A DNA stretch of 61,185 nucleotides, the filler included, from Sphacelaria rigidula (Eukaryota), in assembly GCA_964200075.2 (NCBI GenBank). It is 8 parts of 8 records of this genome, joined end to end, with 100 filler letters (N's around TTAATTAATTAA, not from the genome) between each part and the next. Parts side by side here need not be neighbours in the genome. Positions count along the whole stretch, not along the records: positions 30,645 to 38,205 come from CAXNAA020014331.1; 7 more parts are not named here. One strand, 5' to 3'. How positions within the stretch are numbered: position 1 is the first letter of the stretch; every line of letters starts with the position of its first letter. This document shows, one piece after another, positions 58 to 61,135 of the stretch. The translations under genes and the position numbers were made by a program. Below the pieces are notes generated by a model. It was not told where the DNA came from, did not search any database, and saw only the letters and a list, made by a program, of their open reading frames with translations.

Positions 58-93
<36 letters not shown>

Positions 94-99
94 CGAGGA

Positions 100-165
100 C
101 GTACTGATTCGCTACTTGCCTTGATCGCTTGGCCATTGACCACGCATCCCTTTCAAGACGGAGCA
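100..165 (-). mobile_element. Ultra-short 3'-tip copy of the LINE at 56193-61095, between G-tracts
   Basis: Its reverse complement matches TGCTCCGTCTCGAAAGGGAT..GTGGTCAATGG..GCAAG..GAAT.AGTACG at 61026-61091; long G runs lie on both sides. Confidence 0.85.
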
Positions 166-2152
166 AGTGGCGTGGGGGGGGGGGGGGTGGCGAGAGCGGG
201 GATGAAACTGTTTTCTTATATCGTACATGCCCACTTCGCTCTGAAGTATGAGAGCAGTCCCAGGCTTGTGCTCATTTTTCTCGTGAAAGTTTGCGAAAGA
301 GGTAAGGTATCCTCCTCGCGCTGTAGAGTATACGTTTTCAATTGCGATTTCAGCGACAAGTTATGCGGCATATCGTGGTGAGCTGTCGATGGTGTGATGT
401 ACCGATCAATAACAAGCGTACACTTCATCCAGTCTCTTTGTTGGGGTCTAACCGTCGGTAGAATGGTGTTGGCACCCAAGAAAGCGGTGTGTGTGTGTGT
501 GCGAGCGATTTTTTTTGTGTTGTGTAGATCGTGTTTGCCCCTGACAACCGTGAGCAGCTGTGTGCCCCATCATCGAATATATGTGCCGAGTTTTCTGGAC
601 CGCCTTTGTCCCGTTTTGTGCATTTGCTGAGCATGCACTGCGAAAACATCTGCTTCAAGCAAAGGAGCGATTTTCGAACAAAACACTAAGACAGCTTGTG
701 AGGATGGACGTCGCAAGTGCTCTTCTTGGTCACCCTATATTTACTCACATTGCTCCCGGGTGCGCTACTCGTCGTCAGGATAGCCCCAGCAAAAGAGTAA
801 GAAAATAATATCCGGAGCAGACAGCACGGACACGGAGCAGCAACAAAACAAGGCACAAAATGTGTGTCTCCTGCATCCCCTTCATCACCTAAGATTCGGA
901 GTGAACGGCATGGATCGGGTCAAAGTATGACACAGGAAGTCGGTTTCCTGCCAACATGCAACCACCTTAAAGTGCACCGCGCGCTCTGATCGGCCGTTGT
1001 GGCACTTACTTCATTTTACGGTGTCCTGGCACATCACATAACGCCCTGCTGGCGGCAGTCAAGGACGGTTTGGTACAAGAAAAAGTTCTTGCTCAGTTGT
1101 TCTGCTAAAATATAGTGCGACCGTTGTTGACAATGAGGCAGAACAAAATTTCCTGTTTTGACGTCAAGTTCGTCCCAGTTTGGAATCAATGGATAGCTCA
1201 GATATTGAGGACAACGTATACGGCAATGTATGCGATTTCCAATTCAGTAAGAGGATGTACATTATCTTCGATTGTTGACAATCTCGAGGTTTCAGAGTCG
1301 AGGCCTTCGATTTTGAGGATGGGAGTGTATATTGTCCACTCGGAGGCCGTCAGGTAACTGTATTGTTTTTTCCTCTTCGTTTGTTTTCTTGAGAAGTAAA
1401 GACGAACTTTCATATCGGAAATGCAGTTGAATTGAGCTATAGAGTACTTTGAAAAAACATCATTCGGAGGCGAAATGGTACGGCACGGCCTTCGACAAGT
1501 CGATTCGCTCCTTTCCTCAAATTTCCCGTCCCTAAATCTCACATGTCGAGCGAGAACTCATGAAGCCACTTCGTGGTCCCCTGCTCTCGGACCAGCTGGT
1601 ACTGAGACTGCCGATGGAGAAGCCGAGGGGGCACACTGGTTATTTCATTTGCCCGATATCGGGCTGTAGTAGAGAGCATTATCGCAAGTTGGGCGGTGCT
1701 CGCCTTCATAGGGGTTTCATGTACTTTGAGTGCTCTCCTTCTACTGTAGTATCAACGGAAAAGGTGAAAATTTCGGACACCTTCGAGCCGTCGATGAAGC
1801 CCTGCAACCTACGCACACGACGTTATCACAGCTCGGATTCCTGACGCGCTTTTCCCGTGTGACTGTAAGGTACCCCAAGGCTCTCAAACTGGTGGCAAAA
1901 ATAGTCAAGTGAGAACCTGCCCTCAACAGCACACATGATGTGTGACCTCGGAAAGTCGAGCCACGATTTCCAGTCCACACTAAAATCGAGTGTACGACGC
2001 TCTCGAATTAATGCGTTCACGCGACTGATAGAAATGGATCCTTGCACCAGATGTACCGAAAATAATCCGTCCTGCCTACACGAACGGTTTGGTTGTCGAT
2101 CGTTTCGCTCCTCGTCAACGCACGGACGGTTATTTTCTGGAACCGTGACTTG

Positions 2153-22804: not shown

Positions 22805-22883
22805 GGGGGGCGGGGGGGGGGGGGGGGGAGGGTGTGGTCTTGGTCTTGAGGGTGGTGGTCATGTGACCATTGATTTTGCGGGA
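22805..22883 (-). mobile_element. 3' end of a putative C-tailed retroposon (third variant)
   Basis: Reverse complement reads TCAATGGTCACATGACC...ACACCCTCCCCCCC, sharing the TCAATGGTCA..GAC motif; truncated by the contig end. Confidence 0.45.
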
Positions 22884-22983
22884 NNNNNNNNNNNNNNNNN
22901 NNNNNNNNNNNNNNNNNNNNNNNNNNNTTAATTAATTAANNNNNNNNNNNNNNNNNNNNNNNNNNNNNNNNNNNNNNNNNNNN
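22884..22983. other. Artificial contig spacer
   Basis: 44N-TTAATTAATTAA-44N. Confidence 0.98.
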
Positions 22984-25934: not shown

Positions 25935-26273
25935 ATCCCCCAGCAAGAAATCCTGCTCGACCTGCATCGGAAATCAGCATCAACGTCCCTCGGCATTCGG
26001 CGAGGGGCAGCGCCGGCGGGGCAAGCCTTGCTAGGTGCCGGCGCGGGGGCACCCACCGCGGGTTTCGTCACCAACTCTGGACTGGTACTTAAGTTCGATG
26101 CTTACTTCAAAGAAACCGTCGATGAATCGCCCTTGGAGAATCACCGCGTGCGGAAGTGCAGGATACTGATGTATCTTGAAGATTCCTCCATGCAGATAGA
26201 CGAGTACCGCCAGGAGAACAGTGGGATGTCACAGGGAACTCTCGTCAAGCGCCATGTGATACCATATCCTGAG
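25935..26273 (+). CDS. EFHC1: EFHC1/Rib72-like DM10 protein, first visible exon
   Basis: atag| acceptor, GAG|gtatga donor; VLKFDAYFKETVDESPLENHRVRKCRILMYLEDSSMQIDEYRQENSGMSQGTLVKRHVIP is a typical first DM10 domain. Confidence 0.85.
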
Positions 26274-26599
26274 GTATGATGACGTCAGGTTCCGATTTTG
26301 GTGGGCTCAAGTGTCTGTGCTCAGTGCGTGTACAACTACTGTCAGGTCCACAACCTTTTCTCGATAGCTCGTAACAGCATTGCATTTCCGAGGGCGATAC
26401 GCATGCAGATACCAGACTCGGGTGCAAAACCAATTACCGCCTCGCCCAGGTGGTATAGTGGTTCAACTGACACGGTCGGATCTGGAAAACATGGATTCGG
26501 CTCCCGTGAGATGCGTCTAGTTTGGATTTTTTTCTGCGACGTGTTTGATTCCCGTGGTGAAAAAACACGAGGGCGTGAATAGCTAAACAAAATTGGCTC

Positions 26600-26853
26600 A
26601 AGAAGCAGATATTTGACCCTTGAATCAGTGAGTTTTCGCTGGTTCAAAGGTCGAATGTCTGCTCCTCGAACAAAATATATGGTGTGGGGTCCTTTCCCGC
26701 ATGATCGCATCAGGGATCTCCGGGGCTCCTCGCCCCTCGCAGGTCTCGCTGGTCACAGTTTCAATGCCACCAACAATCGATCGTCCGGGGACTCGAATCC
26801 CCGACCTCTTGTTCCACAGGCGAACATTCAATCATTGAGCCACCTTGACTGGG
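26600..26853 (-). mobile_element. Intronic tRNA-derived SINE (His-like head)
   Basis: Reverse complement of 26781-26853 has A box TGGCTCAATG, loop CTGTGGA (GTG) and a T-arm CGGGGATTCGAGTCCCCG. 3' boundary approximate. Confidence 0.6.
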
Positions 26854-27233
26854 TTTCGTTGAAGAGAGCCGACGCCGTGCAGGAGTATTGGTGGTCATGA
26901 TCCAATTCGCAATACCACAACGTACGGCATATATCGGGGAAGAGATGGGTTGATCCCTGGAGGCCACGAATTCGTCATGAAGAAGGGGTGGGGTTCAAAG
27001 TGTGACGAAAAAACAAAAGCTTCAGCACTGCCCGTGAAATCTACTTGGGGTGAACAGATTTACGATCAAGTCTACTGAGCCATCGTAGACCCGCCGCCTT
27101 CCCCAAATAATACAGAGCCACTGTTTCACCATGCCACGGAGCTTAGGTGGATTCCTTTCGTCTGGCCCATGCAACTCTCAGCCCAAATTCATGCATCCGT
27201 TTTGTTTCGTTGCTCCCCCGGTGAAACGTACAG

Positions 27234-27473
27234 GGGCGACCGGGGTCCTATACTGGCGATGACATCAGGGTTGGTGGCACCATAGATGTTTACGGTCGAC
27301 GGTTTCACGTTGTAGACGCAAACGGCGCCACACGCGACCTCCTCAGACAACGATTGGGTCGAATCGAGGAGTCCGCTATTGCCTTTCCGAAGGACCGTTA
27401 CTCGGTAGAGCGAAGAGAGTTCATGGCTCGCCAAACAGGGTGTGATCCCACAGTACAGCACAAAATCACTAAG
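27234..27473 (+). CDS. EFHC1: EFHC1/Rib72-like exon (end of DM10-1)
   Basis: cag| ... AAG|gtgagt, phase 0; GSYTGDDIRVGGTIDVYGRRFHVVDANGATRDLL. This exon is not in the ORF track. Confidence 0.85.
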
Positions 27474-27833
27474 GTGAGTTTTGTGAGTGAAACATCGAAG
27501 AACGAGCGAAATATCCCACCTCCATATTGATACAGGCAATGACATGCCTACTTGCATTTAGCGGGAAGATTCTTCTTCCGCATGGCATGAACTACAAAAG
27601 CGATGCATTTCATCTGTCTTCTCATCATGGAGCAACGTCTCTCAAGCTGCAGTCGAAAACGTAAAACAACGCACAAAGCCTACTCAACGTCGCAGGTAGA
27701 GGTCACCTCAAAATTGTACTCTTATAGAAGCGATTCTGTATACCGAGATAAATTTTCCTCGTCATTGCGCGGGACCCGAACCCGAACCCGGACCCGCAAT
27801 TTCCCTCATGCGGACCCATTCGCTCACATACAG

Positions 27834-27986
27834 AACGAAATGAAGGTGTTTGCGGAAGCGACGCTGGGGAATACTGTGGATAACAGCAAACGCGCCGGGT
27901 TTATCAAGTACGACCGCAAAGTCCTGCGGTTCCAGGCAGTATGGGATGACCGCGAGAGTTTATACGGAGACCTCCAGAGGTTCGAG
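27834..27986 (+). CDS. EFHC1: EFHC1/Rib72-like exon (start of DM10-2)
   Basis: cag| ... GAG|gtaaga; FIKYDRKVLRFQAVWDDRESLYGDLQRFE. Confidence 0.9.
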
Positions 27987-28574
27987 GTAAGATATGCGCA
28001 CACAAGGCGAATGTTTTGGTCTATTTTCCTTGGATGTCTGTACTGTGACCACGCCTGAACTCGTAGCGGATCAGCGAATGTGCGGCTATCAACCAACCAA
28101 TCAGTCAATCATTCGATGAACCAATAGAAGCGGATATGGAATCTTCATATTGTTTTGAATTGCCGCTTGGTTGAATTTTTGACATCGGAAGTGTTCATGT
28201 CCACCCTTCAAATTACCCTCTTGCGTGAAAAAACGCGTTTGAAATTATTATTCTGCTATCGCAAGTCTTATCTACAACGCTACTGGCTACAGCATGACCG
28301 AGGCATGTACCCGACAGGAATATCGCTTCTACAGAATAGCCGTTGCCTCCAAGGCTACTAGAAGTGTCTTGCTCAACTGAGCACACAGGAAGAGCGCTGT
28401 TGACATGACCTCCGCTATAGTACCTGACAGCGCTGTCTTACGTTATCAAGAGCTGGGTAAGTTTCCCGTCTCAAGTGACCCAACGGGGATCGAGAGCCTG
28501 CTAGCGCTTTTATGCTGCTCTCCCGATGTCCGCGCGTCTTGCATCCTACGAACAACTGCTTGTCCTGGAGACAG

Positions 28575-28745
28575 ATGCACTATTACCTCTCGGACGATAC
28601 AATCGAGATCCGATCCTTGCACGGTCCAAACTCAGGGCGGGACCCTGTCCCGATCCTCGTTAAAAGGGGTAGGGTTCCGAAGTCCATCGCTGGTGGCCCC
28701 GCTAGCGACGCGTACCATTGGAGAGACTTCGATATAGGAGTGGAG
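28575..28745 (+). CDS. EFHC1: EFHC1/Rib72-like exon (DM10-2)
   Basis: cag| ... GAG|gtgagc; MHYYLSDDTIEIRSLHGPNSGRDPVPILVKRGRVPK...YHWRDFDIGVE. Confidence 0.9.
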
Positions 28746-29394
28746 GTGAGCTTGCGGGAACTTGTGGTCGTCTAGTGGGGTGTCTGTTATCATTTGGAGC
28801 GCAAGAGGCAAGGTAACCGACAGACGTTTGATGGAGTTTCCTTGACGTTCATGACCGGCTGGTGGTGACAGGGTAAATCATTTTCGTTTTGTTGTAGAGG
28901 TGGGGGATACGGCATGGTATGGATGGATGGCCCTTTGTGGATGAGGGGAGAAAATTGATGTGCCCCTGTCTGCATATGCGTCTAGACGGTGCAATATACC
29001 TTTTTGGGACTCATCGCTAAAAACATCCTCGACTTCAATCATCCCGAAGCCTCGTTTGTGCCCCAAGTGACACAGCGATCACTTCGTCAATGAGTAACGA
29101 GAGCAGTTCATCGGTAGCACTGACGAAGGTCGTTTTGTGTTCTTCTGTCCTGTGCAAAAACATCCCGCAGGGCTATTTCACGCATCCTTGCGCGTGATGG
29201 CACCAGCCTAGTTGTGAATCAATGGTTCGCACTCAAGGTACCTCCACTCAATTATGCTGCCCGCTCCTCCCTTTTTGACGTCCATCCTCGATTCTTCGAT
29301 CGGCTCGCAACCACAGACAACAGTACTCTGCTCCTCCCCAAACCCCGCAATAACATCAACGGTGATAACAGTGGAAAACGACCAAACATTACAG

Positions 29395-30544: not shown

Positions 30545-30644
30545 NNNNNNNNNNNNNNNNNNNNNNNNNNNNNNNNNNNNNNNNNNNNTTAATTAATTAA
30601 NNNNNNNNNNNNNNNNNNNNNNNNNNNNNNNNNNNNNNNNNNNN
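30545..30644. other. Artificial contig spacer
   Basis: 44N-TTAATTAATTAA-44N. Confidence 0.98.
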
Positions 30645-31319: not shown

Positions 31320-32052
31320 GGACAGCGAGCCTTGTCTCGGAACAGTTTCATAGGCTGAAACTGTTGACAGTCCGGAGACATTGGAGGGTTTCCAGTGGCC
31401 TGGGGGGGGGGTCGAGGATGGGTGTCTGTGCGCAGAGCAGCCGAAAAACTCACCAAGTCAACCATGTGTGTTTGGAAGTTTCCCGCGCAAACTTCGAAGC
31501 CAGGACCAAGCCCTGAGAGGCGCGGAGTGATCATTCTGACCAATCACGGCCGTCAAAATGAGCACGTTGTCCCCCCACAAGTAGACTAAAGGTGGTGGAC
31601 TACTTCGCTGTCTACCGGCAGTTCTCAATTTGGTCATGGCAAATGAACCATAGATTACATGGGTACAAGTAACTTGTTTTGTACTCTGCTCGAGCTCTGT
31701 GCTGCCCGTCTGACGCCTCATGTGTTGCCAGCATAGCTTCACACTGTTTGTAGTGTTGTTGAACACTAGGCAGAGTCATTGGCAGCATGGAGTGAGTTGT
31801 GCTCAGTGGAGAGCGATGTCACACTAAAATAATCCCGTCTCTTGCCGTTGCATCCAGCCGAGACATACAGCACATATACATACCGCCTCTGCGCGCAATT
31901 GACTGCAGGGTCAAAACTGGTCAGGGGTTCTCCGGGACTATCTTCACATAATCATGAAAAAGGCGTTTTGCGTAGCGAGAAAAGAGCTGCTCTCAACCCC
32001 CAAATGGCATTGTCCAACTCAGTCCACCTGCGGGGGGGTCGCTGTCTAAGGG
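31320..32052 (+). mobile_element. piggyBac-like non-autonomous element (family of 53706-54599), left tip missing
   Basis: Shares the ~280-bp left arm (GACAGCGAGC...CATTCTGACCAATCACGG) and the right end GGGGGTCGCTGTCTAAGGG|TTAA. Confidence 0.75.
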
Positions 32053-34184: not shown

Positions 34185-34500
34185 ACCTCAGACAGCGAGC
34201 GTCGCCTCAGAACAGGTCCACAGGCTGACAGTCGAGGGACATCCGGGGGTTTCCAGAGGGCGGAGGAGTGGTTTCTGACGTAGTGGTGGGGGGCTTTTCA
34301 GAGAACAGCCGGAAGGCTCACCGAATCATATAATGTGTGTTTGAAAGTTTGGCACGGAAAATTATAGGTCAGGAACGAAGCCCGAGAGAAGCGGAGTGAC
34401 CATTCTGACCAATCACGGCTATCAAAATGGTCACTTTGTTCCCCTACAGGTGGACTATAGGTGGACGACTTCGCTGTCTAGCTGTATTTACAATTTCGGT
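34185..34500 (+). mobile_element. Left arm of the same piggyBac-like family; right end not located
   Basis: TTAA|ACCTCAGACAGCGAGCGTCGCCTC.GAACAG, homologous to 53706-54000 and 31320-31620. Confidence 0.7.
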
Positions 34501-35440
34501 TATGACATTCAACCACGCAATAATATGCACACTTTGTTCGACTTGAGGACGATGTATGTTGCGATTTATCCGCCATCGTACGTGAATTTCCTCGCGCTGC
34601 TATGTGCACCGTATAGCATGCCATGTAGTAATGATTGCTTGTTGTATCAGTTGAGTTGCACACTCTATGAATAATGACGATACAACTGATTCAATGAAGA
34701 TATCAACGTTGGAATTACATTTACCACGAATATTGCCAAGAAATATTTTTGACGAAAATCAGCCGTTGAAATACTTGGAATGACTGAACGAACGACCTAC
34801 GAAAGTGAGATGTGTTGCTATGACAGGAATACTCCAAGGGCATGTCGGATAGGATACACCCGATATTTTGGTATTTTAAAAAGTGGAGATCCGACCCATG
34901 CCCACAGCAGCCGCCAGCCTAGTACTGTTGCTCCCCTCTCTATGCCCATACAAGTCAATGTTACTGACTTGAGCAGGTGATGTGCGACTTTTCAAAATAC
35001 CACAATGTCGGGTAAACCCTCCCTACCTGACATGCCCTTGGAAATATTTTGCGGCTCTCGAGAAAAGAAACCGGCATATTCAGCCCGTCAACTACTCGAA
35101 TGTGATGCGTCTACTGCCGCATACATTTACAGTGGCTCCAGTGAGGGTTCAAAAGATCGAAGCACTAAAAACAGATTTACAACCAAAAACATGCGCAGCG
35201 ACCGAGTGTGTCTCCGCCCGTCCTGATCTAAAACCAAAGCACCCTTGTGTGACTACGCCGGAACGCTTCGCGAAGTTGTAGCTCATCGACTACTGTAGTC
35301 ACGGGATACTTGCTCTCCTGCTGCTCACACGGGTCGCGAGCTTTACTTCGCTGTCGTACTTTTTCGCGTTGCCATGGGTTTGTTGTGCTATTCGAGCAGC
35401 GCAGATATCATGAAGTGTATCGTATCATTCTAGTAGGGGG

Positions 35441-35487
35441 GGGCGTACTCATTTGTTGCTTGCCTTAGTCATTTGACCATTGACCAC
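35441..35487 (-). mobile_element. 47-nt LINE 3'-tip insertion with a perfect 15-bp TSD
   Basis: CATTCTAGTAGGGGG at 35426-35440 and 35488-35502 flanks the reverse complement of the LINE end GTGGTCAATGGTCAAA...GCAAGCAAC.AATGAGTACGCCC. Confidence 0.9.
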
Positions 35488-35519
35488 CATTCTAGTAGGG
35501 GGTAAAGCGAGGAAATTTT

Positions 35520-36605
35520 CAAGGGTAGGACAAATGATGATTCGTCTGGAAATTACTTGGTTTTAGTATAACTGATTCGAATCGTTCGAATCAATCCCTA
35601 GGCTTTGTTGTCAGCGTTGCAACCCAGGTAGACGCAGCCCAGACACGTGGAATGGCGCAAAAGTTGCGTGGATACCCCTTGGATAAGCGGTCAACTTTTG
35701 TCTCCCTTTGGGGCGATCAGGCCGAAGAAATCGTGGAATTTGGTGATTCGTAGTCGTGATGAGTCGTTCTAACCGTGAAATTTTTGTTGACATGTATAGT
35801 CATTTCTCACCATCCCTTAACGTTTTCGCCAGCTGCTCCGCGTGCACTGGGTGTTTGTTCCCTTTGGTGTGTGTGGATGTTACGTAGGCTGTTACGTTAG
35901 GATGGTGGAGTACCCGGCGGGGGGTATGACGGGTCGTACACAGCAGTTGTTCAATGAGAGTGTTTCTCACACTACATCAATCACACCGCCATTGCGTGTT
36001 GCATGTTTCTCTCACCGATGCATCGATGATTCCGGTCACAATCTCCAGCATTTTTTCTAATCCTCACTGCCGCCTTCAAACAAGGGGGGATCCACTTAAT
36101 TTCGCTATTCGTATGCGATAAAGGTGGCGAAACAGACGTATCGGCGGCACGCGCAAATGAGGCCACATAGTCATGACCCATCGCATCACCGCCTCTACGG
36201 CACCAATGATGGAATTCAACCATTTTTACTTCCGAGGTTTCGCAAAAACGGAATGGCTTTGTTTCAACCTTTTTTCTTCTTTTCAAATATTTTCAAACTT
36301 TTCTGCCCTGTCTTCTCCTGTTGCTTTTTTTTATTGTACTTTTGCACGGTTCGGACGAATCATCGCCGGTTCGAATCACCAAATCCACAATTTTTATCGC
36401 CTAATTGCTCAAAAAGATGAAGAAAAAAAATGACCGCTGGTCGAAAAGGTCTCCACGCAACTTGTGCGCCATTCCACGTGCCTGGGCTGCGTGTACCTGG
36501 CTTGCAAAGCTGAAAACAAAGCCTGAGGATTGATTCGTACGGCACGAATCAATTACACCAAAATCGAGTAATTTCCAGATGAATCATCAATTCGTCCGAC
36601 CCTTG
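35520..36605. mobile_element. ~1.09-kb non-autonomous element with ~250-bp imperfect TIRs (CAAGGG...CCCTTG)
   Basis: 35520-35770 aligns with the reverse complement of ~36345-36605; no convincing TSD. Confidence 0.8.
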
Positions 36606-38018: not shown

Positions 38019-38205
38019 CTCAAAATCCCCCCCCCCCCTCCCGTTCCATATGCAAAATAATTGGTCCTCTTCGGGCCGAACACATCACAGCGCTTCGCGC
38101 TTGGTGATTTACAGTAGTCAGCGTCAGAAGTATGCAGAATCTGTAATTTCTTAGTTTCTCGAAGATTGTCCAAAAATGTTTTGCTTGCCACCGCTCATCA
38201 CGGTG

Positions 38206-38305
38206 NNNNNNNNNNNNNNNNNNNNNNNNNNNNNNNNNNNNNNNNNNNNTTAATTAATTAANNNNNNNNNNNNNNNNNNNNNNNNNNNNNNNNNNNNNNN
38301 NNNNN
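38206..38305. other. Artificial contig spacer
   Basis: 44N-TTAATTAATTAA-44N. Confidence 0.98.
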
Positions 38306-38337
38306 CTCATGGGGGGGGCGTTCTCATGGGGGGGGGG

Positions 38338-38398
38338 CGTTCTCATTCGTTGCTTGCCTTAGTCGTTTGACCATTGACCACGCATCCCTTTCGAGACC
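38338..38398 (-). mobile_element. LINE 3'-tip copy with a reiterated C-tail unit
   Basis: The reverse complement encodes LRSRKGCVVNGQTTKASNE*, close to the LINE C-terminus. On + it is preceded by (CTCAT-Gn-CGTT) twice and followed by a G-run. Confidence 0.88.
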
Positions 38399-40620
38399 GT
38401 AGTTGGTGGGGGGGGGGAAGAAGTATATAATCCTGCAGACGCGCAAGCTTGCACGTCGCTAATCCTACGGGCGAATGTGGCATCTTACTGTGCTGTAGCT
38501 GCGGCGTACTATTGACGTAGCGTAAGCCAAAGAAGTCGCACATCTCTGCGTTCCTGCACCCACCACAGACCGCAGTTTTACACCAGGCCAAGTTTGACAG
38601 CTGGGTCTGAGAGTGTTCGAAATTCTAGTCACCAGGTCGCTAAATATGGCTCCCTGAACCCGGGGTTGATTTTCGTGTCGAGAGTGTATCACTGGACTCG
38701 ACGTTAGGGTGTACACTGTTTTCGATATGTTTGTGCGCGTCGACCGCGAGTCGCGAAGACTAGACTGATTCAGTGATGAAAAAAGCACCGGTGAGGCCTC
38801 TGAGCTTTCAATCTTCCTGGAGACACGCGCCGCACTCTGCAGAAACGGTGCGGGGAAAGATCAGCACACCTATCTGACCAAATCGCTATGTACGTTGAAT
38901 CGTTCCTACAACAGCTAATTTCAGCGGCTTGCAGAGGCCGACCGTCTACATGCTGACATTGTGATGGTTTCCGACCCCCGTGAAAATTATTTCTGTTACA
39001 TGAGGTCAAAAAAGAGGAAGGAGGAAGGGGGCAGGAACCGAGAGATGCGCCACCCCTGGCCTAGGCTTGTCACTTTATAGCGTCACTTCTTCATCCGAAC
39101 ACCATGTCTAGGGTCCCGTGGTGCCTCACACCGAATAGAAAGTGAAACATTATCACACGCGTCATCTTGTTTCGGTCAGAAATGCTGACATAGACCACGA
39201 CTGCACGTAGTAAACCAACCGGCAGCACACATGTAGGATGACGCCCACAACCAAGATAGTCACCAGCAGCACTAACTCAACCCGTGGTACATCCTCCGCA
39301 ACATTATTAGTAGAGGCCATTTTATGGTATACACTAGGGAAAATATGGACATACTCGGGTTCAGTAGTTCGTCGCAAAATGAGGTGTGACATTTCTTACT
39401 TTGCGTACGTCGCATGCTGTTGGAGCGCACGCCCACGATACCTTTATTCGTCCGCCAACGCGAGAAAAGTTTGCGTGTTAGGAGTATCCATTATTTTCCA
39501 ACCTGTGGAGCTGCCCCTACGTATTGCTTTACCGAAGCGGCCTACCCTGTTCGTGGCCTTCGCGGTTTTCCACCGGGTGAAGACGATCAGCGTGACAGCG
39601 ATGACATTCAGCGTGCACTACCACGCGATTGCACAGAGAATGAAAGGGGCCGGAACCGACGACCGGGATATCTCCGTCACTCCGGCGACGGACTGATCCA
39701 CTTACTCACTCTAGCTCCGTTGAAGCGTTCAGCAGCGCGTGTAGAACTCGGAGCTTTAAGGCCTTCCTCGTGCCTGTCGTTCTCTTGACCAATAAACAGA
39801 GCGATTTTACCCCGCCATTGTGTAACAAGCGTTGCCGGGAGCGGCTTTCGAGCAAGAGCGAGGCTGCGCAGAACGCGCCACAAGCCTGCCTTGTTTCGGA
39901 GGCGAAGGTCAACACGTGACAAACCAAAAGACAACAGGGGAACGGAAGTGATTACTCGATCATGGCGAAGCTCGATGATGACGAATAAAAAGGGCAGATG
40001 AGACGCCGTCGACCCCCGAAGTCTAGTTGTTCCTTCCAGGAGAAGTAACGGCAGGTTTCTGTACTCAGGATGTGCGTCAACGCATCCGGCGAGATTTCAC
40101 TTCACGCCGCAGTGATGACTGAAACGTGGCAGTGCGGGCCGTTACAACGACGTGGTACTACACGTTGCAGACCCGGACTTTGAGAAGTGCACCCTATGGG
40201 AGCGGTGTGCCGTGCGCCTACTGATCCACGAAAGAGAGCACGTGGTATTGTGACGTGGAACATTTCCCAAAAAACGTAAATATCATTTATTTCGATCTTT
40301 CTCTGCAGATTCTCCCCTGTGCTAATTTTCTTCATCTCTCCATACCGCTACGAGGTGATGGGAGGGGAGAAAACATAAGATTCTACATTTTAATGCCAAC
40401 TGCGTACCTACCTGAAGTTCTGGGGTGCTGGAGCAAAGCATCCCTGAGCACATCTCTTCCAAGATGAACTTGCCGCTGAGAGTCCCGGAGTCGCGCAACA
40501 ACAAGAACAATAGCAGGAGACAGCCGGGGTGTTTGCGTGATCCGGGGTGTTCGAAGCCAGGGAGACGAGCACGCACGCGTCAAGAGGAAGTCAGGAAGCG
40601 ACGGGTCTTCTAGTGTGATT

Positions 40621-40711: not shown

Positions 40712-41035
40712 ATGTCTTTCCCAAGTTTCGTCGTGCGATATGAACTAGTTTAATTGATTGATAATGTTCTTAATTTTTTTTTCCTTAGTGCGATATAACT
40801 TGGTGCGAACGTAATATATATATATATATATGGTGTAGGGCGTACAGTACACACTACTCACCCCTCAGCCGCAAACTGTTTGAGGTAGTCAGAGCGGTTG
40901 TCCGCGTGTTGTACGTTTCTGCACAGGCTGAACACGAGGCCGACTGATAACACCTGTCAGCGATCACCCGAAAGATGACGGGTTGTTGCCACCGCAAACA
41001 ACCACCGATGCGCGCATTTGCTTTGGGCGGGAGGG

Positions 41036-41099
41036 CGTACTCATTTGTTGCTTGCCTTAGTCGTTTGACCATTGACCACGCATCCCTTTCGAGACGGAG
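41036..41099 (-). mobile_element. LINE 3'-tip copy in a G-rich site
   Basis: CGTACTCATTTGTTGCTTGCCTTAGTCGTTTGACCATTGACCACGCATCCCTTTCGAGACGGAG, flanked by GGGCGGGAGGG and GTGGGGGAGCGGGGGGGG. Confidence 0.88.
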
Positions 41100-44000
41100 T
41101 GTGGGGGAGCGGGGGGGGGGGAGGTGAGGTGTACCCATCATTTTGTATTAGTAGTCCTACGATAGCCCCGCCAAAAAATGTGGTTGATTTGGGGAGGCAT
41201 AATCTACACATAAATGGTTATGAAAAAAGCCGAGCACAACGAGCAGCTGGGAATTCCCACGCTTGGGATCTTTCTCGCCAATGTCGCCCATATTAAGCGC
41301 TTCATGCAGCCTGACACCAATTGTCATGCACTGTATGATCCGTTGTAAGCCGATGGCCGATGGACGATGGCCGACACCTCGAGATTCACAGCACTGGTTC
41401 GCGGTGCATTCAAGTCGGCCACTCCGAGGGCTGCGGTATAGTTCTATTTTTCTGCGCATGCGCTTCGCTTCGAAGGGTACCAGTAAGACCGGTTGTGAAA
41501 CAAGTGACACGCGTACCAGGCGACAGATTTGACAACAATACAACAGTTGTGCTTTCGGTCAAAAGCATCGTCCCGGGGATATACACAGCGACATACCTTC
41601 AAATAGACCGTGCTGACATGGCTAGACGCAGCCCGCAGGAGAGCAGGTGCAAGGTTAAGGTGCATGGCAAGGATGGCCACGTCGGGTTCCGAAGAACACA
41701 GCTGGCACAGGGTTCCCACCGCTAGTGTCTTGATAAGTACGTAGCAGCCCTCGCACGGAAAATGTAACATTGACTGATGACGCCGTATCCTCGAACACGA
41801 AATGAGGATATACACGCAACGTGGGCGAAGTCATTGTGGGATTACGACGCCAACGAACTCTGTGGTCGAGAACTCAGCTGTCAAGATTGTCGTTGTGCAC
41901 TCAGTGCGCTGAGGCGATAAAAGCGGAGGAAGGGAAAGTCCCTCAGGGGGACTGTTTTTTTTTTATTTCACGCATCATTGGACAGGATATCGTTCGAAGT
42001 GGTGAACCACTTGCATGTGGAGCTGTTCTGTTCGACTGGACCCCGATAGGGGTGCCAGAGCGCTGCTATACGGAAGGTACATATCTTCGCCGCAAAGTCG
42101 GCGACAGTTCTGTCCATGTCATCCCCACCTAACCGTCATTTCACAGCAGAGAAGGTGATGCTGTACGTACCGACTGCTCTACACAGCTGAACTATAATCT
42201 TGGTCCACCCTACCATGGAACCAACAACGATAGCAACTACTAATTGTTCAGACCCGCGCCCTCCACTACTGACCACGCATAATGTGTGATAGTTCCATAC
42301 CAAGATGTGCTCATCAAACTTTCACACGGCGATCGACCAATCCAATGATCCGTGTACGCACCACCAAGACGTGCAGGCCGCCCTTCATAGCCAACCTAGC
42401 CGCGTTGTCGCGATGGCATGCGAGAAGCCAGGCGGTCGCCAACATCCTGCAAACAAGAGGAAGTCGAAGAACGAAACAAAACACCGGGCGGTCGCGGTGA
42501 AAATCAATAGAGACACCCGCAGTAAGGTCAAAATACGCACATCTGCGATACTGCGCGCGTTTCTCGCGACTTGTGTCTCTTTTCGGTCGGGCGAGGTGTG
42601 GGATGTGGGATGTAGCAGAACGAACAGCCTGAGATACGCAACGGGGTCGATACGCTTTATGTAGCGTCAACGGTTTTGAGCGTCGCGCTATTGGAACGAT
42701 TGTTATCTGCCTCGCCGCGCCGATTTACGAGATGATGTCGTTGATGCCGCCTGAGTGGAACAGCTGATTTTTTGTCGTTTCCCGTAACTCAGCTACAGGA
42801 TTCGTAGGCAGCTTACGTTCGGTCGAGCCCTTCACATAGACACAGTCGCATCGTGATTTCTCACCCTTCTTTTAGCCCCAACCTCGCGTTTGAGCGCAAG
42901 CCATCAAGGAGTCCATCGATAGCCCACAGTCGCCCGAGCAACTCGCGATACTCGGGTCGCCGCGCCAGCAGCCATCTGCCACCAAACACTAGTCGAAATT
43001 TTTATTAGTCTAACTCGCCAGGATATGAAAGGCCACGACACCCCACGAAAACCTCTAGAGGTAGGACGCGGAAAGTATCGCGAATAATCGTACCCACACT
43101 TGAGTTCACTCACAGGGGACAACTGCGTCAATATGGTTTCATCAGTACCCTACTCATCTTTCAACCATACACCTGTTCTTTCTCGAGCCACGGTCAACGT
43201 CGGTAGAGTTGCTGTGGTCTGGCGGATGTTTCACCCCCCGGAAGCCCCATATGTCACGCACGTAGCGTTCAAGATTATCATGCGTCCACGATTGTCACGA
43301 ACACGCCCAGACGATGTCATCTCGACAAAGCTGCCCCGTAACGTAATTTAGGTGGGTGTCTAGGATGTGCGCGATGTCCGTGGATGATCTTGAGACGTGA
43401 TACGACGGAAAAAGGAAATATCTGGGCGACGGTACGCAGGAGGAGAGTGTAGTACATAGCCGGTGAATGCATAAGAGGTACGGCGCAGTACATTACGCAC
43501 ATTGTCCATGTGGTGTAGTCAAGGACCTGCTCGCTCTTGTGACCAAGGGTCCACACAAGCGAGCTGACTTGTTTCTGCCCCCAGCCTTCGAGGCCCGATC
43601 CTACCCTCCCGTCGTCCCCATTGGTGCTATCATCGCAGTGACACAGGTGCATGATACTGCATGCGACGGTACTATCCATTTCGGCGCTGCCAAGGTGCCC
43701 CACCAGTACATGCTGGAAGCCACGCGGGAGAAAGAGATACAAGTACCGAGGGAAAGACGGGGCGGGTACACTGCAAGTGTCGATCACCTCCGCATTGTAA
43801 AGGCTACTCGGTTAGCAGGCGGTACACGCAAAAAAGGAACATATACCCAGGCATGCAGAGCGGAATCCGAAGGGAGGGAGCGTCACACATTGGCTGGATC
43901 AAATACTGATTCGTCGATACGCACCATTCGCACGAATCGATAACAACTCACACATTGTTGGCACTCGTGATTCGTGCGGTGACGGCATGGGCCATACAGT

Positions 44001-45865: not shown

Positions 45866-45965
45866 NNNNNNNNNNNNNNNNNNNNNNNNNNNNNNNNNNN
45901 NNNNNNNNNTTAATTAATTAANNNNNNNNNNNNNNNNNNNNNNNNNNNNNNNNNNNNNNNNNNNN
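45866..45965. other. Artificial contig spacer
   Basis: 44N-TTAATTAATTAA-44N. Confidence 0.98.
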
Positions 45966-46055: not shown

Positions 46056-47383
46056 ACGCCAACATCAGCGTAGACGCCGATACCTACGCCGACGCAGACA
46101 CCAGCGCAGACGCCGACACCTACGCCAACGCCGACGCCTACGCCGACGCTCACATCGGCATCGGACACTGCCTCGTCGCCCGCACTGTCACCCTCTTCCA
46201 CGAGTCCCTCGCAAGATGGCGGGGGGGGCGACGATGCTCGTCAACTCCCGAGAACCGAGCAACGCCGTCTTGCGTGGGCTGACCGGTTACCAACACCAAG
46301 GGTGGGGCGTACGAGGAGCCAAACGCGCGAGGCAATGGGGTCGGTACACGCACAAGACGAAACGCTGGTGGCTGGTGGAGCGGAGGGAGGCAAGAAGGAA
46401 GCGGAGATGGCGCTGGCGGGAATGGCGGGGGACAAATGCTCAACCATGGAGATGATCACCGCGGCAGCAGGACAGGTGGCAGGACAAGACGCAATCGCTT
46501 CGACTCAACGCGAGTTAGCTGAAAACGAGTTTTTGTTTGGTTGCTGAGTAAAACAGGGTAGGACAGCCTGAATTCGGTATGCGTTCACCGGTTGGCCTAC
46601 ACGTGAGCGAAGTAGAGGCAGCACCAACCAGTATGGATGATATTGCCAGGTCAGAATTTCGAGAGGCATGGTTAGGCGGGACGCAGGCCAATCTAGGAGG
46701 TCATGAAAAGACTGGAACATTTTCGACTGGCCCTGTACCGGAAGCAGCAAACGTGATTTCAGCAAAGTGGGTTTTTAGTTGGAAGACCGACGCAGATTGT
46801 GCTGTAACAAAGGCAAAGGCAAGGTTGGTAGCGCGAGGTTTTGGACAACGGTTTGCAGTCGACTATTTCGAGACTTTCGCGGCAACGCCCTCCATGGCCT
46901 CCACCAAACTGGTCATGGCCGTGGCAGTTCAGGAAGAGTGGCCGCTGTACCATTTTGATGTGACACAGGCTTTTATTCAAGCGGAAATGGATACCGATGT
47001 ATACATGAGGTTGCCTGAAGCTTGCTCCGTTTTGAGAGACGTGGCCGTGAAGCTTGAAAATCTATTTACGGGATCAAGCAGGCAGGCAGGCAGTGGTCTC
47101 GTCTTCTGTGTCAAACTTTACTGGAGGATGTCGGGATGGTGCAGTGTGAGGCTGATCCATGTGCTTTCAAGATAGAGGATGCAGGAGATGTGCGTGTGAT
47201 TTTAGTTGCCCATGTGGACGACATCCTTATCAGTGGTTCTGAAGAATACGTAGGAAAGGTGGGCAAAGCCCTCAACAAAAGTTCTCTAAGAACAATCTCG
47301 GAGAGAGGTCACATGGTACATGGGGTGCGCAGTGGATAGAGACTGGGATAGAGGCACGCTGTCTGTAACGCAAACGACGTTCA

Positions 47384-52409: not shown

Positions 52410-52595
52410 GGGGAGGGGGGGGGAGGGGGGGGGGAACTGGTGCTCTTGCATGCCGTAGTCACATGACCATTGACCTCGCATACCTACAAAGCCGGGACGA
52501 AGCATGCCGGGTTTCGTCTGACCAGGCTCGCAATCAATCACCAAGCGCGGAGCGCCGTGCTGTGTTCGGTGAGTTGCATGAAGTGTGAGAAAAGA
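52410..52595 (-). mobile_element. Second C-tailed retroposon family (SINE-like or sister LINE 3' end)
   Basis: Reverse complement ends GTAGGTATGCGAGGTCAATGGTCATGTGACTACGGCATGCAAGAGCACCAGTT followed by C-runs; homologous to 52981-53137 and 61136-61185. Confidence 0.7.
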
Positions 52596-52980: not shown

Positions 52981-53137
52981 AGCTCACCCTTCACGCGACT
53001 CGCCGAATACGCCACGACGCTTCGCTCTTGGTGGTTGATTGCGATCCTGGTCTGGCGAACATCCGGAGTGCTCCATCCCGGCTTTGTAGGGATGCGAGGT
53101 CAAGGGCCACATGACTATGGCATGCAACGGGTGTACT
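52981..53137 (+). mobile_element. Second-family copy, tail-to-tail with an inverted fragment at ~53145-53194
   Basis: GTGCTCCATCCCGGCTTTGTAGGGATGCGAGGTCAAGGGCCACATGACTATGGGCATGCAAC resembles the LINE 3' end. Confidence 0.65.
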
Positions 53138-53525
53138 GATGATCTTGCATGCCATAGCCATATGGCCCTTGCCCTCGCATCCCTACGAAGCCGGAGGGGA
53201 GGGGGGGATGAGGAAACTTCGCGCTTCTGAAACGACGGTGCGGAGGCACGAGTCAGGCTATCTAGCTCTCCCCATGCGAAGCGCAACGGCCTTCAGTCCA
53301 GCAGGTACGTACGTCGTAGTAGTGCGGGTGGGGTATTGAACCCAGCAGGCCTTTTTTTCTCAGTACCTTCGAATAGATCTCGTACAGGCGAGGAGGTCAA
53401 TGCTCGCTGAGCAGACTTTTACTTGATTAAGTAGCAGTTAACAACAAATTGTGCGAATTGAGGTTTAACTTTGAGATGAGGCTCAAGCCTAAAACAGTGT
53501 CTTCCCCACACTTTCAGCGATGGTG

Positions 53526-53625
53526 NNNNNNNNNNNNNNNNNNNNNNNNNNNNNNNNNNNNNNNNNNNNTTAATTAATTAANNNNNNNNNNNNNNNNNNN
53601 NNNNNNNNNNNNNNNNNNNNNNNNN
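53526..53625. other. Artificial contig spacer
   Basis: 44N-TTAATTAATTAA-44N. Confidence 0.98.
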
Positions 53626-53705
53626 TATTGCTCTGCCAGGTTAAATCCGTTTCTGGGCTGGCCCAGCTCACAGTTGTACACGATTCTGAACATTTTGTTG
53701 TTTAA

Positions 53706-56192: not shown

Positions 56193-59100
56193 ATGCTGGT
56201 ATCCAAACCCGAAACGAAGGACTTCTTTGTGGGCAACATCTACATTCCCCCAAAATTGAAGAGTAGGGTGCACGATATACAACGGAGGTTTGGAGAGATA
56301 GCAGAAGACGTATATAAGTATTAAAGGCAAGGGAAAGTAATGTTAGTGGGAGATTCCAATGCAAGGGTAGGAAGAGCAGGTCAAGAAGCACACGAAGGAG
56401 TGAGGTATAAAGTTCCTGGAGCATAACGAGACGAAGACGCTGAACAACAGAGCACAAAAGCCAGAGGCGCAATGGACATGGACTCGAAGATGCAAAGACG
56501 AGAGAGAATGCTCCGTTCTTGACTATACAGTGGTGGAGCATGGAAATAGTGAAGAAATGGGAGTAGACGTCTGCGCGGAGCACGTGGGAATCACAGATCA
56601 ATGCCTAATATGGACAGAAAGCCAACAACAGACCAGAGCTATTTAAGATAAATGGGCGGGGTAGGAAGTTGTACAAATGAAGAATCGATGAACTAGATAT
56701 ATATGGGAAAAAAAGAGGAAGAGTTCCAAGAGGAGACGGCCAAGAATGCAGCGAAGTTTGCCGAGCTGTTGGAACGCGTAGGTACAATTGATACCGGAAT
56801 GGGAAGAAATTGGGCAGGAGGGGCGAAAATCATAATAATAATAGAAGGATGGGAGCAGTTGGTCAAGAACACAGCGAGTAAAGTCATAGGGAAGAAAGTG
56901 ATCGTATGCAACAGAGTAGTAAAATGGTGGGATGAGGAAGTGAAAGAGGCTATCAGAGTAAGGAGAGAGGCCCACCACGCGGGATGGATGTCGAGCGAAA
57001 CTACGGCAGGATAAGAGGAGCATACTAAAGCTCGAAAGGAAGTAGAGATGGTACAGCAGAAAAAGAAGGGAGTATGGAAAGACGTCGTGAAAAAAACAAG
57101 TGAAGATTTCGACGGCTGGATGAGACAAATGTGGGTGGGTAGGGATAAAAAGGATAACGGGAAACCAGACAGGAACGATACGTAGACAAGGGGATAGCTA
57201 CACTCCAGGCACAGAACGATGAAATGGTCAGTAGTTCGAAGGGAAAGAGAGAAGTGCTAGTCGAGCACTGCCCTAAACTATGAACACCAAAAACAACCAC
57301 GGAGTTCGACATGGAATTCGAAATAGAATCCAACGCGTGAGCAGAGGCAAATGTAGAGACGTCAAAACAGGAGGGTAGAGTCTCGAAATAATTGCAGAGA
57401 GAATTCACCAGATATGAAGTAAAGGGGTGCGTAGCTAAACTCAAGAACAGAAAGGCAGCAGGGACAGACGGAATAGCGAATGAATTTATCAGGTACGGGG
57501 GAGAGGGAATGATTACCGTGGTGGTTATTATGCTGTAAAGCTGGATCTGGGAAACGAGCACACGCCCAAAAGATGTAGAGAAGGAGTAGTTGTCAACCTT
57601 TTCAAAAAGGTAGACAAGGCTGACCCAGGAAAATATAGAGGAATAACGCTACTGAGCACGGTAGAGAAAACGTTCTGCAGGATTCTGAACGAAAGAGTAG
57701 GTACGATGCTAGAAAAGGAAGAGAAAATCTTCAAGGGACAAGCAGGATTTCAACGAAACCGTAGTTGCATAGACCATGTGTACACACTAGGTAAGATCGT
57801 TCGGGGTAGGAAAGACACCGGGCGGACAACGTACTGTTTCTTTCTAGACGTGCAAAAGGCTCATGACATAGTATGGAGAAATGGGTTGTGGGGAAAGTTG
57901 TGGGAAGCTGGGATCACAGGAAAGATATGGAGAACGGTGAAGATGATGACAGAATATGTGCCGAAAGTGCCATGACGCTAGACGGGGAAATATCGAAATG
58001 TTTCAAGGTTGTGCTCTGTAGGGTACGATTTTCTGTATACCCGGGGTATTTTGACGGGTATTTACCGTCCCCGACAGTTCTGTAAACTCTGTACGACTTT
58101 CATACCGGTACCCGATAGTTCTGCAATCTCTGTAAGACTTTCATACCCTTACCCGATATTTCTGTAATCTCTCCAAGACTCCCGTATCGTTACCGGGGGG
58201 CACGAGTACGCTCTTGATAAGATACCTGATTGCGGGTACGGTTTTGTGTGCAACTTCCATATCCCACCCGACAGTTTCTGTGAGATCTGTAAGCCTCCCA
58301 TACCCTTACCCAACAATTCTGTGAGCTTTGTACAGAATGCTTACCCGTACCCGGAGCGCGGGTAACCTCTTGAAGAAATACCCGATTGCCGGTACCGGTT
58401 TTCTGTAAGTCTCCCATACCGTACCCGACAAGTTCTGTAATTTCTGTAAAACTTTCATCCAGTACCGGTACCCGACAGTTTTGTGAGCTCTGCAAGCCTC
58501 CCATACCCCTACCCGGAGTTAACGTATACCGTTTTAGATATCCCCGACTGCAGGTATGAGCACAGGTATATACCTTGGGGAGGTACGGATATAGGTTCAA
58601 TCCAAACCCAACCTCATGACCTGAACATGTACCTCCCATCGATCAACCCACACAACTCCTTCATTCAAGACTGCACACCAACAATAATTCAATGTGAAAA
58701 AGTTATTTCGTTCGGGATCTGACGGGATACGAGGTACCGCTCAGTGGGAACACGAAACACAGCCCTGCAGACCGTCAGGATGCATCACCCCCAGACTCAA
58801 GTGATCTCTCGAGCGGGGGCGCGGTTCATCTGCCCCACCAGGGGATCAAGTAGCAAGACGCACGTCATCAACGTTGATGGTGGTTGTGTCGTGGCCATCA
58901 AACCCCAGGCCGTTACCGACATGTACGGCATAGACTATAAGCTGCCACCGAAAGTCGTAAAGGCAGTCGGCGAGTTTGTCGCGTGCCAAAAGGCTTCCAG
59001 AGAATGGGCAGCCGTGAATGCTTCGTGTAGGCTTTCTCTGTCAACCCCGTGAAGCCGTTCAGAATTTTCGTGAACTTTCATCTGTATTTCGCCACTGTTG

Positions 59101-61095
59101 TAGTGACGTAGGTCTCACCACAGGGGTGATGATAATATGTAGGGTACGGTTTTCTGTATATCCGGGGTATTTTGCCGGGTGTCTACCGTACCCGATAGTT
59201 CTATAAACTCTGTGAAACTTTCATACCGATACCCGCAGTTCTGTAAGCTCTGTAAGACGTTCATACCCCACCCGATAGTTTCTGCAAGTTCTGTAAGCCT
59301 ACCATACCCTTACCCGATAGTTTTGTGATTTCTGTACAGAATGTGTACCCCGACCCGAGGGGCGGGTATGCCCTAAAAGAGTTGACCGATTGCCGGTACC
59401 GGTTTTCTGTAAGCCTCCCACACTGTACCCGACAAGTTCTGTAATTTCTTCAAGACTTTCATACCGGTACCCGACAGTTCTGTAAAGCTCTGTAATACTT
59501 TCATACCGGTACCCGACGGTTCTGCAAGTTCTGTAAGGAATCTCATACCGTACAGAACGTACCCATACCTTACAGAACACAATCTTGAAGTGGTTTGATA
59601 TGTTACAAGGAGTTGCACAAGGATGTACGTTATCACCCACTTTGTTCAAGGTAATCATTAATGACTTGATAATAGCAATAGAAGCAGCAAAGCAAGAGAT
59701 CAGCGTGGGTGAAGTGGGTAAAGATATGGTATCAAGATTGATGTTCGCGGATGATTTTGTGGGGATTTCAGGAACACCAGAAGGATTACAGACACCGATA
59801 GACAAGGCGCTAGAATGCACTAGGAAATGGAGAGTGGCAGCGAACGTTAACAAATGCACGGTACTCGTCTGTGACGAAGGTAAGAAAATTCTGGTAGAGT
59901 TCAATTGAAAGTAGGACGAAGAGAAATTGACGATCGTAGACCAGTATACATACCTTGGCGTAGATCTCTCACAAAACTGTTCTTGGGATGGACACATGAA
60001 CAAAGTAATAGAAAAGGGTAAGGCACAGATAGGCAAGTTGGACGTGATCTTCAGAGACCCGCACCTAGACGCTAGGATCAAGAGATGTATAATGATGAAC
60101 GTGATCGTGCCAAAGCTGGAATATGCAGGAGAAGTATGGAAGGGGAACGTGAAGTTGGTGGAGAGGTTGGAAATAGTGCAGATGGCAGCAGCTAAGAAAA
60201 TACTTGGATGCTCGAAAACGACGAGTAATACTGCAATGAGAGCAGAGTTGAAAATGTACTCACTTGAAACAAACAGAGACATGAGAAAATTGCAATGGCA
60301 ATATAGCTGACACAGCATGCAGAGAGGGATATATATATTGCCAGCTGTAGTTGATCGGGCTGTACGGAAGAAAAGTGCGGAAGGGAAGGCTGGAATAAGG
60401 GGGGATAAAGAAGTCGAGAAAGTGTGGAAGGAGATCGGAGGAAACCAGGACGAAATACTGTCCATAGATGAAGGCGTGGGGTATAAGACAAAAGCAAGAT
60501 ACATGATGGAAATGAGGGGAAAAGGAGCGCTCAGACGCAAAGTTAACGAGGAAGAGCACCTGAAGATATACGGGCAGTTGAGAGAAAGGATAGGGATGAA
60601 AGCATATTTGCATGGCCCAATGAACGCGGCGAAAAAAATGAAATGGTGATCTCGGATGGGGGACCTACACCTGCCAGAAAGAAGAGATTTACCAGTCGTC
60701 GGAAGGAGGAGAGAGTAGATGGGCGGAACTGCCCCTATGGCAAAGGAATCGAGAGCAGAAGCCATATAGTGGAAGAATGTGAATCATGCAAGGAGGAACG
60801 GGACGTGCTAGAGGGGGAAATGCGGGACGTGAACGAAGATGGCATAAAACCGTTTGATACATTAGACAGTAGGGAGAAAACGATGGCTATACTAGGAGAT
60901 AGATGGTGGCCAGAGACACTGAAACAGGACGGGGATAAGATATGTGACCGGTTGTTGCGTAATGTATCGGAAAAACGTAATGAGCGCCGGAATGTTGGAG
61001 GTGTCGCTATTAGGAGTAGGAACGGTGCTCCGTCTCGAAAGGGATACGTGGTCAATGGTCAAACGAGTACAGCAAGCAACGAATGAGTACGCCCC
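56193..61095 (+). mobile_element. Decayed, 5'-truncated non-LTR retrotransposon ORF2 (APE endonuclease, RT, C-terminal zinc-knuckle-like motif), tentatively RTE-like
   Basis: FFVGNIYIPP and VMLVGDSNARVG (APE); KAAGTDGI, DPGKYRGITLLS, QAGFQRNRSCIDH, FLDVQKAHD, QGVAQGCTLSPTLF, MFADD, YTYLGV (RT); CPYGKGIESRSHIVEEC. Many stops and frameshifts; ends ASNE*-GTACG-C-tract. Confidence 0.93.
58004..59587. mobile_element. 1584-bp TIR element inserted in the LINE RT, built largely of ~40-bp tandem units
   Basis: CAAGGTTGTGCTCTGTAGGGTA vs reverse complement of the right end CAAGATTGTGTTCTGTAAGGTA. Flanks AAATGTTT / AAGTGGTT match at 6/8. Removal rejoins LDGEISK-WFDMLQGVAQG. Confidence 0.88.
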
Positions 61096-61135
61096 CGTCC
61101 CCCCCCCTCTCCCCTCATGCGGCTCCCCGCACACC

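Follow-up and report, generated by a model that had tools for sequence, protein, structure and literature searches.

How did 47 nt that end in a run of C's on the minus strand come to lie between two perfect copies of a 15-bp sequence whose own 3' end is a G-run, and did the two homopolymers pair with each other during the event? The locus comes from the brown alga Sphacelaria rigidula and lies in a composite window (the whole stretch of DNA analyzed, 61,185 nt). The window consists of 8 pieces of 7560–7561 bases joined by N44-TTAATTAATTAA-N44 linkers (7562–7661, 15223–15322, 22884–22983, 30545–30644, 38206–38305, 45866–45965 and 53526–53625). As a result, the insertion (copy B, piece 5) and the long LINE of the same family (copy E, piece 8) are not neighbours, and features across pieces are not linked. 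Copies A, C and E lie near piece ends, and are cut or nearly cut by them. The features of the locus and of the related 3' ends are collected in Table 1.

Table 1. Features of insertion B and of the related LINE 3' ends in the window (3' ends in element orientation).
Feature	Position	Strand	Extent of truncated copy	3' end	Description
Left copy of the duplication, CATTCTAGTAGGGGG	35426..35440	+			borders the 3' tail of the element; presumed to provide the primer end with its 3' G5
Right copy of the duplication, CATTCTAGTAGGGGG	35488..35502	+			at the truncated 5' end of element B
G8 run	35436..35443	+			5 G's common to the duplication plus 3 extra G's (35441-35443)
Copy B, LINE 3' end, 44 nt	35444..35487	-		GTACG-C8, the duplication's C5 included	identified by matches to other copies and peptide identity
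Copy A	61..187	-	100-165	GTACG-TCCTCG-C33	~66 nt of 3' end, 80% identical to B; C33 tail; C14 + 10 nt 5' of truncation
Copy C	38306..38417	-	38338-38399	GAACG-C10-ATGAGAACG-C8-ATGAG, then piece end	~59 nt of 3' end; tail cut by piece boundary; C10 + 9-11 nt 5' of truncation
Copy D	41025..41121	-	41036-41098	GTACG-CCC-TCCCGCCC	~63 nt of 3' end, followed by CCC and further C-rich sequence; C11 + 11 nt 5' of truncation
Copy E	56205..61107	+		GTACG-C5-G-T-C9	long degenerate LINE of the same family as B; identified by RVT_1 matches and tblastn of P0005
Copy F	52415..52589	-		...CAGTT-C10-T-C9	3' end representing a diverged second family of this type
Copies G (+) and H (-)	52983..53207	.	H, 53134-53196		second family; in inverted orientation with their tails abutting, no C-run between

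The two copies of CATTCTAGTAGGGGG that border the insert are identical at 15 of 15 positions, and are the sole two matches in 61185 bases when up to 2 mismatches are allowed (0.07 expected; two or more in 0 of 100 shuffles). The perfect 15-bp target-site duplication (TSD) of the initial annotation is thus an exact pair that is unique in the window. Since the repeat exactly borders a 3'-anchored, 5'-truncated LINE fragment, its interpretation as the mark of a real integration event also stands. Chance similarity, or a local tandem duplication that did not involve retrotransposition, has a negligible probability: no shuffle among 100 gave either a second copy of the 15-mer or any match to the 47-mer, and the repeat units are not contiguous but lie on either side of sequence with seven further matches elsewhere in the window. 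A self-comparison of the 61,185-nt window revealed no paralogous copy of the site of B or of its flanks. An inverted repeat with two arms of ~265 bp (35520–35780 and 36341–36605; 80% identical) begins 18 bp beyond the right end of the TSD. It was considered as a paralogous empty site and rejected, since it starts beyond the TSD and does not span the site.

Read on the minus strand, the 47 nt are GTG GTC AAT GGT CAA ATG ACT AAG GCA AGC AAC AAA TGA GTACG CCC, i.e. the last 12 codons of the single ORF of a LINE, its stop codon, GTACG and at least 3 C's. The codons for VVNGQMTKASNK run from 35487 to 35452, followed by the stop TGA (35451 to 35449) and a 5-nt 3' UTR, GTACG (35448 to 35444). VVNGQMTKASNK is also the C-terminus of the full-length relatives P0005 and P0007 (12/12 residues), so just 5 nt separate the ORF of this family from the tail, and B represents the very end of the coding sequence. 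The 47-mer (35441–35487) matches the minus strand at 38335–38381 with 3 mismatches and at 41033–41079 with 1 mismatch. With these two minus-strand matches and the GTACG end followed by C's, the insert is, as originally described, the reverse complement of a LINE 3' end. Across the 44 bases of the element, C's excluded, B is identical to D at 43 positions, to C at 41, to E (61048–61091) at 39 and to A at 35. By these identities, B belongs to the 3' end of the LINE family, yet is nearer to other short copies than to the lone long LINE of the window. The identities, together with the perfect repeat, mark B as a fairly young insertion.

The long copy, E, spans the end of the APE domain, a split RT and a CCHC knuckle, and ends with a stop codon (61084–61086), GTACG and the interrupted C tail given in Table 1. 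The Pfam RVT_1 family matches both RT parts (57484–57972, E 3.7e-10; 59537–59905, E 5.3e-11). In a tblastn comparison, residues 273–1360 of P0005 align to 56214–61083 of the plus strand with a break between residues 852 and 860 (57954 to 59570). Copy E is thus 5'-truncated at about residue 273 of P0005; it also carries stops and frameshifts and, judged from its sequence, is old. The ~1.6 kb that split the RT (57955–59569) consist largely of ~41-nt tandem repeats, with TRF arrays at 58063–58194, 59184–59323 and 59425–59550. An open frame of 494 codons on the strand opposite copy E (59302–60783) matches no Pfam family and seems to result from the purine-rich sense strand. A further RT fragment in the window, of Ty1/copia type, is located at 46552–47172 on the plus strand (RVT_2, E 1e-22).

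The relative P0005 is one ORF of 1360 aa with an Exo_endo_phos domain (170–392) and an RVT_1 domain (740–989). A CCHC knuckle of the form C-x1-2-C-x7-8-H-x4-C is found at the C-terminus of the ORF in P0005, P0007, P0008, P0015 and P0016. The first RT piece of copy E has 28 protein matches, of which the 11 that carry names all belong to Ectocarpus sp. CCAP 1310/34. ENA proteins, P0005 among them, match best (78–79% identity), and the Ectocarpus proteins are up to 64% identical. Along with the matches of the DM10 gene given below, these matches identify the host as a brown alga. The nearest solved structure to the LINE is human L1 ORF2p (8uw3, E 6.6e-21). We refer to the family as RTE-X type, a placement based on shared features and on homology to Ectocarpus proteins that carry no family labels, rather than on a tree.

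Elements of this kind have been catalogued in Ectocarpus. The curators' notes describe RTEX-1_Ec32 as 'single EN-RT ORF; (C)n 3'' with a 'C-rich' TSD, and RTEX-2_Ec32 as '(C)n termini/TSD', while Ectocarpus RTE-1/2_Ec32 have (CAA)n tails (PMC12477816, Supplementary Material 3). The same supplement lists the non-autonomous elements RTEX-N1 and RTEX-N2, whose last 60–100 bp are common with RTE-X LINEs, and the main-text table gives 16,418 copies of RTE-X in Ectocarpus (PMC12477816). The family described here resembles RTEX-1/2_Ec32, as these are characterized in the curators' notes rather than by sequence, in its brown-algal host, a single EN-RT ORF (in the relative P0005), a (C)n 3' end and, at B, a C-rich TSD. 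RTEX-1/2_Ec32 have thousands of mostly short copies and short non-autonomous relatives, and the window family likewise consists mostly of short copies. It differs in belonging to another species and another family, with best RT matches (78–79%) that are not from Ectocarpus. The published description of RTE-X, as far as the notes and the available text go, ends at '(C)n 3'' and 'C-rich TSD' (PMC12477816), and those notes on RTEX-1/2_Ec32 give no TSD length, nick site or mechanism. The terms 'C-rich' and 'insertion preference' each occur 0 times in the main text as available, which does not discuss tail or target (PMC12477816). Literature searches on poly C tails of LINE retrotransposons found no paper, and those on homopolymers of brown-algal LINE/RTE elements found nothing relevant; in the available passages of the literature on RTE-X and non-LTR target sites, the clade name is in use, with nothing on tails or targets. 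The kind of element, its (C)n tail and its C-rich TSD are therefore, by the supplementary notes, already recorded for Ectocarpus, and a clean example in another brown alga is new. The B locus adds to that record a TSD length (15 bp, or 10 bp by the other parse described below) and a candidate nick site (G-run^T/A).

We consider it likely, with good confidence, that B was inserted by target-primed reverse transcription (TPRT) of a brown-algal RTE-X-type LINE with a single ORF (APE, RT, C-terminal CCHC) that ends within 5 nt of a (C)n tail. The observations on which this reading is based are the duplication, the 3'-anchored truncated copy, the domains of the family, the C-rich tails, and the C/G runs in the target DNA of other copies. 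In the proposed sequence of events, the endonuclease would nick the plus strand in a short run of G's or at its edge (...CATTCTAGTAGGGGG^TAAAG...). The freed 3' end, ...TAGTAGGGGG-3'OH, would then settle on the terminal C's of the RNA and prime cDNA synthesis, which would halt after 44 nt of the element. The other strand would be cut 15 nt away, and fill-in would yield the 15-bp duplication. We infer the order of the nicks, the base pairing between G-run and C-tail, and the carriage of the C's by the RNA.

The left junction bears directly on the pairing step. The initial annotation held that the C-tail of the element merges with the G5 of the TSD. This is confirmed and can be refined, since the plus strand has a G8 run made up of the 5 G's of the TSD and 3 more. 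TAAAGCG directly follows the right copy of CATTCTAGTAGGGGG, and this copy shows a target in which TAAAG came after G5. The extra G's are the complement of the element's C's, and the split between target and tail is ambiguous: a 10-bp TSD (CATTCTAGTA) with a C8 tail reads identically. The letters at B, where G5 ends the TSD and C's end the element, fit a pairing of target and tail, and fit equally well this shorter TSD, or an endonuclease that prefers G-runs together with an addition of 3 G's. The difference of 8 versus 5 G's is one of homopolymer length, prone to slippage or assembly error, and thus fragile evidence. In element orientation, the TSD of B ends in C5, which gives a geometry of C5 plus 10 nt.

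A competing explanation accepts TPRT and dispenses with the pairing between tail and target. On this account, the endonuclease would prefer G-runs, the RNA would end in ...GAGUACG with no templated C's, and the 3 G's would arise by non-templated addition, slippage or assembly error. We regard this as somewhat unlikely, and the other 3' ends in the window bear on it in both directions. These ends were collected with an nhmmer profile of 68 positions built from the five copies A–E, which recovers those five by construction. Besides B, the profile has seven sites in the window (E 1.6e-24 to 1.3e-5), of which the four strongest were in the model and three were not. The latter are the three weaker ends of the second, diverged family (52446–52487, 53083–53129 and 53129–53190; E 6.8e-8 to 1.3e-5), whose peptide reads ...EVNGH... 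where that of B's family reads ...VVNGQ.... Four more profile matches with E above 1 were left out.

The 3' ends are C-rich in all five family copies A–E and in F, and a (C)n end is absent in G and H, the latter being a point in favor of the explanation that dispenses with pairing. Copy D, with CCC at its 3' junction and C11 on its 5' side, favors the same explanation, as does the label 'termini/TSD' attached to the C's of RTEX-2 in the supplementary notes for Ectocarpus (PMC12477816). On the other hand, the curated entry for RTEX-1 places the C's at the end of the element ('(C)n 3'' in the same notes; PMC12477816), and the 3' runs are longer than the 5' runs in A (C33 versus C14) and B (8 versus 5), as expected if the element adds C's. 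Across the four short copies, however, the lengths on the 3' and 5' sides (33/14 in A, 8/5 in B, 10/10 in C and 3/11 in D) follow no rule. The tail of copy C (38306–38337) is a tandem array of the last 9 nt plus a C-run (C8–10) with at least 2.5 repeats, which reads CTCAT-G8-CGTT / CTCAT-G10-CGTT / CTCATTCG... on the plus strand. The repetition of this unit implies that the C's travel with the end of the element, contrary to an RNA that ends at ...GAGUACG. It is possible that the array originated by template switching, by slippage, or by repeated ultrashort insertions at one run.

On the side opposite the tail, a truncated copy is flanked by DNA of the target, with no tail involved. We scored C runs in the 20 nt that precede the homology border of the copies with a defined 5' end (A–E and H, which leaves out F and G). 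A run of at least 5 C's is found in 5 of the 6 readable RTE-X ends (C14 in A, C5 in B, C10 in C, C11 in D and C7 in H), and none in E. By comparison, 1.56% of all 20-nt windows on both strands carry such a run (binomial P about 5e-9). In A–D, the run ends 9–11 nt before the 5' border of the element, which is the geometry of the TSD of B. The G/C-run bias in other copies, which the initial annotation had proposed to look for, is thus present at both junctions, with C-rich 3' ends in A–E and 5' flanks with runs in 5/6 copies against a background of 1.6%. The presence of C-runs on the target side in 5/6 copies means that the runs belong to the target in any case, as the explanation lacking the pairing step would have it. 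Among the short copies A–D, a clean TSD is seen for B alone (1/4), C being cut by a piece boundary. For A, D and E, inspection by eye gives just a C/G-rich likeness between the flanks, which is not significant in low-complexity sequence, and the 10–11 nt beside the 5' run of A and D are not repeated in the 3' flank.

The recurrence of the geometry of a run plus 10 nt in A, C and D also weighs against an origin of B by repair, in which a fragment of LINE cDNA or RNA would be captured at a double-strand break independently of the endonuclease. Short patches of this kind do occur at repaired double-strand breaks, and the insert is very short. The perfect 15-bp duplication indicates staggered nicks, however, and the insert retains the exact 3' end of the element, which leaves capture at a break highly improbable.

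The source of the copied RNA is a separate question from the mode of its insertion. Instead of the LINE itself, the RNA could be that of a short non-autonomous element (RTEX-N or SINE-like) that has the 3' end of the LINE and borrows its enzyme, an alternative that we consider unlikely. The commonest Ectocarpus family, according to the published survey, is non-autonomous and has 60–100 bp of 3' end in common with RTE-X LINEs (PMC12477816). In the window, the truncation points of A, C and D fall in a span of about 7 nt (59–66 nt, counted from the 3' end) and that of H at about 55–60 nt, which is odd for random truncation, and B (44 nt) has more positions in common with D (43/44) than with E, the long LINE (39/44). 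The 44 nt of B, on the other hand, encode the C-terminus and stop of the intact ORFs P0005/P0007 (12/12 residues), and A, C and D have no common 5' head, their upstream sequences being unrelated. B itself has no head unrelated to the LINE, all 44 nt being the end of the LINE ORF plus UTR, although a truncated dependent copy would look alike. A stretch of 44 nt is too short to separate an autonomous LINE from a dependent element as the source.

Overall, 5 of the 8 ends in the window are shorter than 70 nt. The clustering of 5' ends in A, C, D and H is not expected of random truncation and may reflect a preferred site of truncation or a dependent family of very short elements. The position of the cluster at 55–66 nt is a hint that reverse transcription may halt early at a fixed point. 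A conserved RNA structure, such as an enzyme-stalling hairpin, was considered and is unsupported by folding. The single-sequence fold of the 3' module is no better than those of shuffled sequences (z -0.21; 73/200 shuffles fold as well), and in the fold of an alignment of 7 copies, one of the 14 pairs is compensatory and the covariation term is +1. The conservation of the module is explained by the coding C-terminus. In annotation, RTE-X ends of 45–70 nt are common and easily missed.

The proposed insertion of B by TPRT, with a putative pairing between the G-run of the target and the C's of the RNA, has a close analogy in human LINE-1, whose endonuclease nicks at TTTT/AA and whose T-run primer anneals to poly(A). 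Both elements have an APE endonuclease and an RT, use TPRT, are frequently 5'-truncated and are flanked by TSDs of ~15 bp. As in LINE-1, the homopolymer at the presumed primer end of B would complement that of the tail, with the same ambiguity at the boundary between TSD and tail. The systems differ in the homopolymers themselves (G-run and C-tail here, T-run and poly(A) in LINE-1), in the 3' UTR, which is just 5 nt here, and in ORF1, which is absent from the relatives seen of the window LINE. The C's cannot derive from ordinary polyadenylation, and so would have to be templated or added in another way. The RTE clade (RTE-1, BovB), reportedly described by Malik and Eickbush in 1998, is said to have a single ORF with APE and RT, a very short 3' UTR and a simple-repeat tail. 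The window family is similar in its single APE-RT ORF, its very short 3' UTR, a simple-repeat tail other than poly(A), and in being of a kind that is parent to short non-autonomous elements. It is unlike this clade in that the tail is a C homopolymer and a CCHC knuckle is conserved at the C-terminus of its relatives.

If the pairing is real, the locus would provide a natural second example of homopolymer-guided priming, and RTE-X elements may drive the many long G/C runs of brown-algal genomes. We tentatively suggest, with more doubt than conviction, a broader scheme in which brown-algal RTE-X elements pair a G-run with oligo(C) where L1 uses a T-run and poly(A), in which each of their insertions leaves a new C/G run as a future landing site, and in which they are prone to a fixed early stop. 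Such self-made landing sites, if they exist, would explain the excess of G/C runs, the tandem units of the last 9 nt plus a C-run, and the predominance of ultrashort copies. The window contains 16 runs of at least 10 G's or C's, compared to 0.08 expected from base composition, roughly a 200-fold excess. Runs of at least 10 A's or T's are also in excess, less so (7 versus 0.10 expected). Among the 35 G/C runs of at least 7, 11 touch a recognisable RTE-X end. Examples of long runs are found at 61–93 (G33), 22812–22828 (G17), 8068–8079 and 55636–55647 (G12), and 38027–38038 (C12).

Repeats that start at G-runs (31402, 53801, 32032 and 54579) were evaluated as further C-tailed families. They were rejected and excluded from the counts, as the run is internal to an element with the inverted ends TAGACAGCGA...TCGCTGTCTA. 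Members of this repeat family with an internal G-run are located at 34191–34480, 53701–54001 and 31422–31657, with further ends at 32039–32048 and 54586–54595. The family is probably a small MITE-like DNA transposon, separate from the LINE. Other repeats in the window are arrayed in tandem with a period of 332 bp and have relatives ~3 kb away (10868–11607 and 13735–14505). The window also contains an ORF with an IQ motif (2153–3133, minus strand) and, on piece 4, the exons of a flagellar gene with DM10 domains (Rib72/EFHC-like; 25935–28772, plus strand), for which Laminaria, Ectocarpus, Choristocarpus and Discosporangium provide the top matches among named proteins.
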